Source of the DNA: Bacilli bacterium
GTDB lineage: Bacteria > Bacillota_I > Bacilli_A > RF39 > UBA660
Direction: 5' to 3'
NCBI GenBank assembly: GCA_028693275.1
Contig: JAQUVS010000003.1
Location: forward strand, 6,046-70,045
DNA length: 64,000 nucleotides
This document shows, one piece after another, positions 48,801 to 51,635 of this stretch; position 1 is the stretch's first letter, and each line of letters begins with the position of its first letter. Made by a program: the position numbers and the translations under genes. The notes beneath the pieces were generated by a model, which was given only the letters and a program-made list of their open reading frames with translations, had not been told where the DNA came from and did no database searches.

Positions 48801-51635
48801 CTATTTAGCCACTATGTTTACTATTCTATTTTTAATTACTATTACTTTTACTATTTCTTTTTCTTCTAAATGTTTTTGTACATTTGAGTCACTTAAAGCT
48901 TTTTCTTTTATTTCTTCTTCAGTATCATTAATTGCACAAATAATAGTTCCTCTTAATTTACCATTTACTTGAACAGCTATTTCTTTTTCTTCATCTATTA
49001 TTTTTTCTTCATCATATGTTGGCCATGCTGATTCACATAAAGGATTTCCTAAATGATTAATTTCATTTAATTCTTCTGTTATATGAGGAGCTATAGGATT
49101 TAATAAAGTAAGTAGTGTTCTATAGTCTTTTTGACTTATTTCTTCTTTATCAGTCATTTCATTAGTTAATATCATTAAAGCAGAAACTGCTGTGTTAAAT
49201 TTCATATTATCTATGTCTTCTGTGACTTTTTTTATTGTTTTATTAATTATCTTTTCTAAAGAAGATGAGTATTCATCTGAGTTATTTAATTTGTCTTGTA
49301 ATTTAATAACTTTATCTAAGAATCTTCTACAACCATTTAGACTTTGTTCGCTCCAAGCAGCTTCTTTTTCATAGTCTCCTATAAACATTTCATAGCATCT
49401 TAGTGCATCTGCTCCTTGTTTTTTTACAACGTCATCGGGATTTATAACATTACCCTTAGACTTAGACATTTTTTCTCCACCTTCACCAAGAATCATTCCG
49501 TGGGCTACTCTTGTCTTAAAAGGTTCTTTGTAAGGAACTAATCCAATGTTATATAGGAATTGATTCCAGAAACGAGCATATAATAAGTGTCTTGTAGCAT
49601 GTTCCATTCCACCATTATACCAATCAAGTTGTCCCCAATAATTCAATGCTTCTTTTGAAACAAATTCTTTATCATTTTTAGGATCCATGTATCTTAACCA
49701 GTACCAAGAAGATCCAGCCCAGTTAGGCATTGTATCTGTTTCTCTTTTAGCTGGTTTTCCGCATTTAGGACATGTTGTATTTACCCAACTTTCTATTTTA
49801 GCAAGTGGACTTTCACCATCATCTGTTGGTTCATACTCAGCTACATCTGGTAATAAAACAGGAAGGTCTTCTTCTTTAACTGGAACCCATCCACATTCAT
49901 CACAACATACTAAAGGTATTGGTTCTCCCCAGAATCTTTGTCTTGTAAATATCCAATCTTGTAATTTATAATTTGTTTTCTTATAACCGATTCCTTCTTT
50001 TTCTAAATACTCTAACATTTTATTTATAGATTCTTTTTTATTTGTTAAACCATTTAAGATACCAGAATTAACCATTTTGCCGTCTCCAGCATAATAATTA
50101 TTTTCTGCTAGTAAATTTCTGAATGTAGTAATATGTAATTCATCTTTTACTTCTTTTTCTATTATTTCTCTTGATACCCATTCAATTTCAAATTTACCTT
50201 TTTCGTCTTCATCAAGATTATTTGTTTCTTTCTTATCAGAAATAAGTTTAAATAATAATCCAATACTTTCTATTTCATAAGCTTTATTCTTATTATAAGC
50301 AAAATAATGATGATTAATTGGACTAATTTCTTTGATAAATCTAATATCTGTGTATCCAGTTTCTTCTTTTATTTCTCTTACAGCTGTTTCTAATGCAGTC
50401 TCATTATCTTTTCTTGTTCCCCCAATAAATAATCTTCCACCTAATTCTTTCCAATTAAGAGTTAAATATTTATTATTTTCTTCGTCATAAATAACTGCTA
50501 CTATACTATTTTTTTGTTCTTCATTTTCTCTTTGTTCACCAGTTATTTGTTCTATAACAGGGATTATTTCTATATTAAATTTACTTGCAAATTCATAGTC
50601 TCTATCATCATGTGCTGGAACAGCCATAATAGCTCCTGTTCCATAGTTCATCATAACATAATCTGAAATATAAATAGGAATTTCTTTATTTGTAATAGGA
50701 TTAATAGCTGTTAATCCATCAATTCTCACACCAGTTTTTTCTTTTGTCATATTTAATCTTTCAAATTCTGTTTTGAAATTTGTTTTTTCTCTATAATCTA
50801 TTATTTCATTCATGTTGTTTATTATTCCACTATATAGGTCTATATATGGATGTTCTGGGGCTATTACCATGAAAGTAACTCCATATAAAGTATCTGGTCT
50901 TGTTGTATATACTTTTAATTTTTCATCTATTTCTTTAATTTTAAAATCTACTTCTGCTCCTGTTGATTTTCCTATCCAATTGATTTGAGCAGTTTTTATT
51001 CTTTCTTGGAAGTCAGTCTCATCTAAACCTGTTATTAAGTCTTCTGCATAGTCTGACATTCTTAGTACCCATTGGTCTTTTTCTTTTTGAACTACAACTG
51101 ATCCACATCTTTCACAAGTTCCTCCGCTAGAATCTTCATTTGATAAACCTGTTTTACAATTAGGGCACCAGTTTATACTTTTTTTAGCTTTATATGCCAT
51201 ATCGTGTTCATAAAATTTAATAAATTGCCATTGAGTCCATTTATAGTATTCTGGATCAGTAGTAGAAAATTCTCTACTCCAATCAAATGAAATACCAAGA
51301 TCTTTTATTTGTCCCTTAAATGTTTTTATGTTTTCAGCTACTGCTTCTTTAGGATGAATATGATTTTTAATAGCATATTGTTCTGCTGGAGCCCCAAAAG
51401 CATCCCATCCCATTGGAAATAATACATTATATCCCATCATTCTTTTCTTTCTTGCCATTGTATCAATTGCTGTATAGCTTCTTACATGACCAACATGTAA
51501 TCCAGATCCAGATGGATATGGAAATTCTACAAGATAAAAATATTTTTCCTTATCACTATTATTTTTTGCAACAAAAGTATTATTATCATCCCAATATTTT
51601 TGCCATTTTTTTTCTATATCATTTATTGTCATCAT
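48801..51635 (-). CDS. leuS: Leucyl-tRNA synthetase carrying an inserted Nudix hydrolase domain
   Basis: HVGH and KMSKS motifs, CP1 editing domain; about 150 extra residues including a perfect Nudix box between ...IPVIEQI and [10 protein letters not shown]; terminator hairpin AGTGGCTAAATAGCCACT + T-run at the 3' end. Confidence 0.95.
   Translation of the reverse strand: [944 protein letters not shown]

Follow-up and report, generated by a model that had tools for sequence, protein, structure and literature searches.

The locus described here raises two questions: whether a leucyl-tRNA synthetase (LeuRS) really carries a complete Nudix hydrolase within its chain, and on what such a hydrolase would act. 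Few enzymes have been catalogued as thoroughly as the bacterial aminoacyl-tRNA synthetases (aaRSs), and it is rare for them to carry an additional catalytic domain. In the window, that is, the whole stretch of 64,000 nucleotides analyzed here, a single ORF encodes leuS with a product of 947 aa including the insert; the NCBI version of the same protein (P0009) starts 3 residues downstream, has 944 aa and is otherwise identical. The gene and its protein are laid out as follows, from the N-terminus to the C-terminus of the product.

48801..51644, minus strand: leuS coding sequence including the insert; single ORF, matched by TIGR00396 and 1h3n, identical to P0009 apart from the start
50982..51644, minus strand: N-terminal Rossmann-fold half with zinc module, aa 1-221 (PF00133 on aa 13-222)
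50547..50981, minus strand: CP1 editing domain, first part, aa 222-366 (PF13603 on aa 222-377, 197.6 bits)
50889-50906, minus strand: TTRPDT, aa 247-252, in the first part of CP1
50598-50615, minus strand: AHDDRD, aa 344-349, in the first part of CP1
50094..50546, minus strand: Nudix domain insert, aa 367-517
50352..50420, minus strand: Nudix box, core G409-Y431, of the pattern GX5EX7REUXEEXGU
49965..50093, minus strand: CP1, last part, aa 518-560, where the chain returns to the main body (aligned with Thermus thermophilus 377 onward)
48801..49964, minus strand: second Rossmann half with anticodon-binding and C-terminal domains, aa 561-947 (PF08264 on aa 799-908)
49458-49472, minus strand: KMSKS, aa 725-729, conserved

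The window LeuRS scored 931.6 bits against the model TIGR00396 (leuS_bact), whose curated equivalog cut-off is 548.4, and matched the PDB LeuRS 1h3n collinearly over its full length (E 3.8e-209). The HIGH motif, present as HVGH at aa 50-53 (nt 51486-51497; H50, G52, and H53 invariant), and KMSKS are conserved in 75 sequences. Members of leuS_bact have a CP1 domain with the T-rich motif and a universally conserved Asp (T. thermophilus D347), and the CP1 of the window LeuRS contains both TTRPDT and AHDDRD; the editing residues T247, T248, R249, T252, D346, R348, and D349 are invariant across the clade and retained in ~90-97% of 61 distant Nudix-bearing LeuRS. Since the aminoacylation and editing motifs are kept, the protein is best read as a LeuRS plus an extra enzyme, not as a crippled LeuRS. 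A role of the Nudix domain as substitute for a dead editing site was ruled out by the conserved editing residues. The large leucine-specific domain (Thermus ~581-637) is absent; in the 1h3n alignment, query residues 721 and 726 pair with T. thermophilus 580 and 638.

Upstream of the gene, two further elements were found.

52031..52212, minus strand: T-box leader with specifier CUU (Leu); RF00230, 108.7 bits (gathering score 93)
51619..52011, minus strand: predicted membrane ORF of 130 aa, conserved, located between T-box and leuS and overlapping the start of the latter

The specifier loop of the T-box, which precedes both the small ORF and leuS, aligns as GAA-CUU-G; this leucine specifier lends indirect support to the predicted Leu-specific aminoacylation of tRNA-Leu by the window protein. 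Relatives of the 130-aa ORF lie directly upstream of leuS in 44 loci (tblastn), and in a Pfam search this ORF matched no family above cut-off.

The position of the insert follows from the 1h3n alignment, in which query residues 9-366 correspond to T. thermophilus 8-364 and residues 518-721 to 377-580; thus, 151 residues stand in for a 12-residue loop (T. thermophilus 365-376). With the extra segment delimited in this way, the remaining LeuRS has 796 aa, in agreement with the ~800 aa that the original prediction gave for typical bacterial LeuS. The CP1 editing domain already interrupts the Rossmann fold as an insertion of its own. In the Pfam search the match to PF13603 is broken at profile position 153 of 185, which places the insert inside CP1 and not in the aminoacylation core proper; the original prediction, which had named the catalytic core of LeuS as the host element, is to be corrected on this point. 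The Nudix domain is nested in a CP1 surface loop that is preceded by the strand following the helix with the editing-site Asp and is followed by the GDGxxxNS segment; in the last part of CP1, the clade alignment shows no variation at G522 and S527. The insert is in frame, and its composition is the same as that of its flanks.

The Nudix assignment itself stood up to closer analysis. Pfam NUDIX (PF00293) matched aa 380-495 with 40.2 bits in the full protein (gathering score 21.1), and the segment as delimited in the original prediction reached 44.9 bits when searched alone. The box, located exactly where it had been predicted, reads G409-x5-E415-x7-R423-E424-I425-x-E427-E428-x-G430-Y431; G409, E415, R423, E424, E427, E428, and G430 are invariant in 75/75 clade sequences. 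No second box of this kind turned up when all six frames of the window were translated, and none occurred in 200 residue shuffles. In structure predictions based on alignments of 38-42 sequences, the insert adopts the alpha/beta/alpha Nudix fold with confidence, at pLDDT 88-95 within the full-length model (pTM 0.65) and 87.9 when modeled alone. That the protein is a LeuRS with one complete Nudix domain is, on this evidence, practically certain.

Relatives are encoded in at least 311 GTDB species representatives. Among 80 fetched loci, 73, from different studies, carry the domain within an intact LeuRS ORF of ~940 aa; five of the other seven end at contig ends, and two show no ORF match, one (L002) from a long-read assembly whose gene calls are fragmented and the other (L056) an isolated fragment. 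A survey of orthologs had been proposed along with the original prediction, and it bore out the insertion, which is no isolated case: the domain occurs clade-wide in uncultured gut Bacilli. Within the clade, conservation of the insert matches that of the Rossmann core (mean pairwise identity 0.63 vs. 0.60), and the median dN/dS is 0.14; the defining residues of Nudix pyrophosphohydrolase catalysis are all kept under purifying selection. A query with the insert alone against a word-indexed protein database retrieved only eight fragments. Two of these (P0004 and P0006) lie on long contigs where the adjoining genes are also split, with synteny to the window in L001, a likewise frameshifted locus that is one of two extra loci outside the 80. 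These two are thus no indication of free-standing genes or pseudogenes. An intein or mobile element was ruled out by the lack of a composition break and the strong purifying selection.

The wider family extends well beyond this clade. An exhaustive search of 1.84 billion proteins, clustered at 50% identity, gave 149 closest representatives, and 99 of them are LeuRS or LeuRS fragments; in these, Nudix domains occur at three different insertion regions and in up to three copies, most insertions being in or beside CP1 and 92 domains sharing the same insertion site. The domain is retained between LeuRS lineages that are only 45-55% identical in their LeuRS parts, and we suspect that some of the distant architectures come from candidate-phyla bacteria. 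Of 156 domains in the wider family, 115 have a canonical box; where a LeuRS has several Nudix domains, the box of certain paralogous copies is degenerate (first Glu to Gln; RE to AE or ME). Beyond LeuRS, this Nudix subfamily also occurs as an insertion in a polynucleotide phosphorylase (PNPase; P0296, a single representative), follows a ProRS-like anticodon-binding domain in three small proteins with degenerate boxes (P0230, P0241, and P0249), and appears in a GNAT-Nudix-Nudix-RimL-like GNAT-M17 peptidase protein; stand-alone relatives have 150-190 aa and ~30-36% identity.

Curated Nudix subfamily models were not reached by the insert in a profile search: it scored 16.1 and 14.1 bits against the RppH/NudH models NF001938 and NF001936 (cut-offs 116 and 118), 20.1 and 14.1 bits against the MutT 8-oxo-dGTPase models TIGR00586 and NF008044 (97.9 and 148), and 15.8 bits against the NudE model (169), and its best, though weak, NCBIfam match was TIGR02705 (BsRppH/YtkD; 24.3 vs. 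154.4 bits). The ADP-ribose/ADP-compound pyrophosphatase class (NudE, NudF) has a Pro ~16 residues past the box, where the insert has a Tyr; P442 is not conserved in the clade (lysine 43, proline 20). This Tyr, Y447, is invariant in the clade and lies 16 residues past the box; a Tyr in the loop region downstream of the box marks ApnA hydrolases, where it contacts the second nucleotide (PMC5389931), and the structural equivalence of the two is assumed from position. The insert is strongly acidic (mean net charge -10.5, range -18 to -4), a property more in keeping with a Mg-nucleotide substrate than with a surface for RNA binding. Sequence search against the PDB gave marginal matches only (best E 0.0013); the clearly best structural match, 2azw, was seen by fold comparison only, E. 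coli RppH was among the top Foldseek matches, and ADP-sugar, PP-InsP, and decapping enzymes obtained structural scores equal to those of ApnA hydrolases.

The Nudix domain is likely to be catalytically active, and we consider it rather probable that it is functionally coupled to LeuRS. As substrate, ApnA (Ap4A/Ap4N, perhaps Ap3A-Ap6A) is proposed tentatively. The housekeeping, T-box(Leu)-controlled LeuRS of this uncultured, low-GC member of the Bacilli would then carry an active Mg-dependent pyrophosphohydrolase working on a small nucleotide that LeuRS produces or binds. ATP or another NTP would attack Leu-AMP in the synthetic site, yielding dinucleoside polyphosphates that the tethered Nudix domain could cut asymmetrically in cis to NTP and AMP; in this way an abundant enzyme would release less of the alarmone, in an organism whose genome is small. 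The original idea of an Ap4A coupling appears chemically reasonable, and ApnA hydrolases and RppH are among the structural neighbors of the insert. Hydrolysis of aminoacyl-adenylate, in turn, is not known among Nudix reactions. The acidic insert, the invariant Tyr447, and the production of Ap4A by aaRSs were counted in favor of ApnA; aaRSs are the main Ap4A source, and Nudix enzymes cleave Ap4A asymmetrically (PMC13627108). Counted against it were the lack of a match to any subfamily model, a best structural match (2azw) that gives no substrate clue, and the fact that the classical Ap4A producer is LysRS and not LeuRS (PMC13627108). The three insertion regions and up to three copies argue against a precise geometric coupling, and the presence of the same subfamily in PNPase and beside a ProRS-like anticodon-binding domain, which points to RNA enzymes generally, also counts against ApnA.

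The same distribution bears on an alternative in which the host enzyme presents an RNA terminus to the Nudix domain, for example for RppH-like removal of a 5' pyrophosphate or an Np4A/NAD cap, or for repair of a blocked tRNA-Leu 3' end; a 3'-pyrophosphate added by toxic RelA-SpoT homologs (toxSAS) would be one such block. Most insertions lie in or beside CP1, the module that proofreads the 3' end of tRNA and normally inspects its CCA end. This alternative is further favored by the PNPase and anticodon-domain proteins, by RppH among the top Foldseek matches, and by YtkD/BsRppH as the best, if weak, NCBIfam match. Yet the domain carries a net charge of about -10, the RppH and YtkD models remain far below cut-off, the anticodon-domain proteins have degenerate boxes, the PNPase case is one representative, and the insertion position varies; action on RNA ends is rather unlikely.

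Tolerance of several insertion regions and copy numbers is also what would be expected of an uncoupled housekeeping Nudix enzyme. Such a general nucleotide sanitizer or metabolite hydrolase would work independently of LeuRS chemistry, and bacteria with small genomes would have captured it in an essential gene with high expression, at a loop that tolerates insertions. The other host proteins, the stand-alone relatives, a free-standing Firmicute Nudix protein as closest structure, and the single Nudix box in the window are consistent with such capture. It is nevertheless not very likely, given the strong host preference (two-thirds of the closest representatives LeuRS-linked, with 92 domains at one site) and the persistence of the domain across such divergent LeuRS lineages.

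Quite unlikely is a reading in which the proofreading module of LeuRS has gained a further site for quality control or repair, with a chemistry of its own and acting in cis on a LeuRS-bound target; candidate targets are a tRNA-Leu 3' end pyrophosphorylated by toxin RelA-SpoT homologs and, in self-defense, a non-hydrolysable leucyl-adenylate mimic. The architectures with up to three Nudix copies around CP1, the PNPase insertion, the anticodon-domain-Nudix proteins, and the GNAT-Nudix-Nudix-RimL-like GNAT-M17 peptidase support a tRNA-handling role over one on free nucleotides. The degenerate boxes in some copies of multi-Nudix LeuRS would fit a non-catalytic sensor that, in the manner of NrtR-type Nudix domains, adjusts aminoacylation or editing on binding a nucleotide such as ADP-ribose, Ap4A, or ppGpp, or a domain that only stabilizes CP1; with every catalytic box residue invariant throughout the clade and a canonical box in most domains of the wider family, this reading is improbable. 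Finally, an assembly chimera, a mobile or intein-like insertion, or a decaying pseudogene could be suspected from the metagenome-assembled source, the relatives known only as fragments, and the isolated L056, but it is effectively refuted by the in-frame insert of flank-like composition, the 73 independent complete ORFs, the low dN/dS, and the origin of the fragments from long-read contigs with neighbor genes likewise in pieces.

What the protein means depends on the substrate of its Nudix domain. A second, apparently active hydrolase lies inside the LeuRS editing domain and is conserved in hundreds of gut and digester species; the window LeuRS belongs to a large, unrecognized family of LeuRS with one to three Nudix domains. 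If Ap4A/Ap4N is the substrate, synthesis and destruction of an alarmone would be physically coupled on one polypeptide, a simple system for asking whether the Ap4A that aaRSs make serves as a signal or is a waste product. Should the substrate instead be an inhibitor or the end of an RNA, the protein would represent a novel type of repair or defense linked to an aaRS. The original prediction knew of no described LeuS with a Nudix insertion, and none was found in the searchable papers open to non-subscribers. LeuRS-Nudix proteins are already in public databases with the Pfam match precomputed. NCBI names the window protein merely "class I tRNA ligase family protein", a vagueness due to the insertion, and leuS is therefore under-annotated in an abundant uncultured clade.

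Among known systems, the LeuRS part is closest to bacterial LeuRS such as those of T. thermophilus (1H3N/2BYT) and E. coli (4AQ7). The ApnA hydrolases and RppH/NudH share fold and box with the insert and perhaps also the invariant Tyr in the post-box loop, and they act on the compound class that aaRSs produce; identity to the insert is 15-22% for E. coli RppH (7SP3/4S2Y), the Aquifex enzyme 3I7U, T. thermophilus Ndx1 (1VC8), and Mycobacterium tuberculosis Rv2985 (9CXX). The structurally closest protein, 2AZW (a MutT/Nudix family protein of Enterococcus faecalis, UniProt Q836H1), is free-standing and 17% identical to the insert; it is listed with function undetermined (PMC5389931) and thus provides no substrate clue. 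A curated precedent for the union of a bacterial class I aaRS with a small-molecule enzyme domain is the IleRS with an N-acetyltransferase domain (NF040702, ileS_w_GNAT); unlike this protein, LeuRS-Nudix has no curated model among the NCBIfam models, and the two differ in both the host enzyme and the added fold.

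Nucleotides 48801-51644 of the window (minus strand) form one uninterrupted ORF of 947 aa, which is a bacterial leucyl-tRNA synthetase (LeuRS) because it scores 931.6 bits against TIGR00396 (cut-off 548.4) and matches the LeuRS structure of Thermus thermophilus (1h3n; E 3.8e-209). In the 1h3n alignment, query residues 9-366 pair with residues 8-364 and query residues 518-721 with residues 377-580; therefore 151 residues stand in place of a 12-residue T. thermophilus loop, and this alignment delimits the insertion as follows:

50094-50546, minus strand: Nudix insert, aa 367-517 (1h3n alignment, translation checked)

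The presence of a Nudix domain within LeuS was borne out by the proposed scan with PF00293 (Pfam NUDIX), in which aa 380-495 scored 40.2 bits in the full protein and the originally delimited segment 44.9 bits alone (gathering score 21.1). The Nudix box (G409-x5-E415-x7-R423-E424-I-x-E427-E428-x-G430-Y431) lies exactly where it had been placed, at nt 50352-50420; such a box arose by chance in 0 of 200 shuffles, and no second one was found in the six-frame translation of the 64-kb window. Composition is flat across the ORF (GC 0.24-0.37), with no break seen at the insert, and the protein has every testable defining feature of a bacterial LeuRS and of a Nudix superfamily member. The whole protein, modelled with AlphaFold2 from 38 sequences, gives mean pLDDT 82.5 and pTM 0.65, and the insert ranks with the most confidently predicted parts (10-residue block means 83-95); modelled alone (pLDDT 87.9, pTM 0.82), it has the predicted strand and helix order of a Nudix fold.

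The insertion does lie inside LeuRS, but its original attribution to the catalytic core was imprecise. The LeuRS editing-domain model PF13603 is broken by the insert at profile position 153 of 185; upstream are the helix with the editing-site Asp (AHDDRD, aa 344-349) and then one strand, and downstream follows the GDGKMVNSG segment. This break and these flanks nest the Nudix domain within the proofreading domain CP1, itself inserted into the Rossmann fold. Whereas T. thermophilus LeuRS has a leucine-specific domain (approximately residues 581-637), the window protein lacks it in the 1h3n alignment, and for this reason measures only 796 aa without the insert.

The ortholog survey that had been suggested was run on one genome for each GTDB species, and at least 311 species encode relatives of the insert. 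The best 80 of these loci were fetched; they come from uncultured Bacilli of guts and digesters, which bear the labels Tenericutes, Mollicutes, Bacilli, Clostridium sp. CAG:417, and Ca. Onthocola and Ca. Faecimonas (both "Bacilli incertae sedis" in NCBI taxonomy). Of the 80, 73 have the match within an unbroken LeuRS reading frame of about 935-945 aa and five are truncated at contig ends; the remaining two are L002, whose long-read assembly has all its genes in pieces, and L056, an isolated fragment. The latter (2973-3419, plus strand; 148 aa, 57% identical) comprises the CP1 end and most of the Nudix domain between unrelated genes; its MAG carries the label Candidatus Paceibacterota, and pseudogene decay, chimerism or mis-binning of the contig may account for it.

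Across an alignment of 75 sequences, the box residues G409, E415, R423, E424, E427, E428 and G430 are all invariant, as are T368, G369, K378, I381-A383, Y393-T395, W398, G403, L405, H445-Y447, A449, N451, F465, E481, F485, W489, D501, L503 and H504. Mean pairwise identity reaches 0.63 in the insert, against 0.60 in the N-terminal Rossmann half and 0.665 in CP1; among 56 closer pairs, the insert has a median dN/dS of 0.14 and the remainder of the protein 0.075. The insert is under strong purifying selection. The HxGH, KMSKS and T-rich motifs and the editing Asp are conserved in the same alignment. The neighbourhood of leuS contains the following features:

52031-52212, minus strand: T-box leader with specifier CUU (Leu), upstream of a small ORF and leuS
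51619-52011, minus strand: 130-aa predicted membrane ORF between the Leu T-box and leuS, overlapping the leuS start
38971-40266 (plus), 40263-41594 (plus), 45839-47092 (minus), 47097-48737 (minus): three FemAB-family paralogues and a MurJ/Polysacc_synt-type flippase, beside leuS
35676-35859, minus strand: second T-box leader, preceding a tyrosyl-tRNA synthetase gene (34413-35639)
17104-17448, minus strand: class B RNase P RNA (283.7 bits), consistent with a Bacillota/Mollicutes-type organism

The kept motifs, the constraint and the upstream Leu T-box argue that this LeuRS is probably the organism's working, leucine-regulated enzyme with an extra domain. In 44 related loci, tblastn places relatives of the 130-aa ORF (23-45% identity) immediately upstream of leuS; the ORF matches no Pfam family (Colicin_V sub-threshold only) and appears to be a partner that is conserved and co-transcribed with LeuRS-Nudix. 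L001, one of two loci fetched apart from the 80, from a long-read assembly akin to that of L002, repeats the gene order GH31 - small ORF - leuS - flippase - FemAB; FemAB enzymes take aminoacyl-tRNA for peptidoglycan cross-bridges.

In both of two homologue searches, every one of the top 120 proteins carried a precomputed PF00293 hit. An exhaustive HMMER search of 1.84 billion 50%-identity cluster representatives with the insert gave 278 matches at E <= 1e-3, and the best 149 were mapped with local HMMs of LeuRS segments. LeuRS or its fragments account for 99 of these 149, with LeuRS parts 45-55% and Nudix parts 25-40% identical to the window protein. The Nudix domains occur at three sites (w, window-protein numbering):

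Site A, about w363-518, the window protein's own site: 92 domains
Site B, w210-240, either preceding CP1 or in its first hairpin, immediately N-terminal to the T-rich motif: 16 domains
Site C, w581-628, second Rossmann half: 5 domains

Some LeuRS proteins carry two or three copies (two before CP1 and one after in P0181 and P0185; a tandem pair after CP1 in P0200). Of 156 domains in the wider family, 115 have a canonical box; a recurrent variant (first Glu to Gln, RE to AE or ME) is found mostly in additional copies. Some 90-97% of 61 distant Nudix-bearing LeuRS retain the editing-site residues, so the Nudix domain is an addition to a functional editing domain and not a substitute for it. Four LeuRS (P0232, P0293, P0270, P0273) have, on top of the site-A Nudix, an extra insertion of ~120-200 aa at w~240, in the CP1 first hairpin, that the Nudix HMM did not recognize.

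The analysis thus demonstrates the domain architecture, an intact catalytic motif, purifying selection and intact LeuRS motifs; we infer that the Nudix domain is an active pyrophosphohydrolase and, because its host preference is strong, that it is functionally tied to LeuRS. The insert fails all curated Nudix subfamily models tested by wide margins, so that a substrate is not assignable from sequence. Tentatively, the tethered domain might clean up dinucleoside polyphosphates (ApnA), a reading favoured by enzyme chemistry, structural neighbours, an invariant Tyr and acidity. Aminoacyl-tRNA synthetases produce these compounds from aminoacyl-adenylate, and their asymmetric cleavage is a Nudix reaction (PMC13627108); ApnA hydrolases carry a marker Tyr in the loop after the box (PMC5389931), the region where the insert's invariant Tyr appears to lie. 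The top Foldseek neighbours of the predicted insert structure are 2AZW, RppH, NudI/YfaO and the Aquifex Ap4A hydrolase, with ApnA hydrolases and RppH well represented. Against ApnA, LeuRS is not the classical Ap4A producer (PMC13627108), and the variable insertion sites speak against a precise coupling.

The same subfamily is also found inserted in a polynucleotide phosphorylase (P0296; aa 175-298, canonical box) with an RNase PH domain at its N-terminus (aa 7-144) that matches PNPases in the PDB (E 2e-37), and after a ProRS-like anticodon-binding domain (1nj8, E 4e-5) in P0230, P0241 and P0249, which look like genuine stand-alone genes because each starts with Met at the domain boundary; these three, P0268 and P0297 are about 230-300 aa long, with a degenerate box whose RE pair lacks its Arg. 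Insertion in a PNPase and the place after an anticodon-binding domain point away from ApnA and towards RNA; the markedly acidic insert (mean net charge -10.5) is easier to reconcile with a Mg-nucleotide substrate than with a surface that binds RNA, and chemistry on RNA or tRNA ends is unlikely. An uncoupled housekeeping Nudix, against which the strong host preference counts, is similarly improbable. A sensor or structural module is quite unlikely beside the intact box, and an artefact, with the uninterrupted ORF recurring across loci, is of negligible probability. What probability remains falls to options not enumerated, including detoxification of adenylate-mimic inhibitors. RimL-type acetyltransferases and aminopeptidases handle aminoacyl-nucleotide antibiotics, and P0251 (1318 aa), a further protein with this Nudix subfamily, combines, in this order, GNAT, two Nudix domains, a RimL-like GNAT (Acetyltransf_3) and peptidase M17 (leucyl aminopeptidase), an architecture that may be coincidence or a gene-call chimera.

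The suspicion that LeuRS-Nudix is undescribed held: a full-text literature search found no paper linking the two, and the 2017 Nudix clan survey does not mention tRNA or synthetases (PMC5389931). Since the sequences are public with a Pfam hit, the novelty lies in recognizing the architecture and in its biology rather than in the data. NCBI names the deposited window protein (P0009) "class I tRNA ligase family protein [Bacilli bacterium]", and P0166 likewise, instead of leucine--tRNA ligase, despite 931 bits against TIGR00396; the rule for automatic naming apparently fails because of the insertion, leaving leuS under-annotated in this clade. A conserved extra enzyme inside CP1 would surprise a synthetase specialist, and it makes the Ap4A question directly testable. 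No dedicated NCBIfam model exists for LeuRS-Nudix, whereas NCBIfam does model a comparable architecture, IleRS with a GNAT domain.
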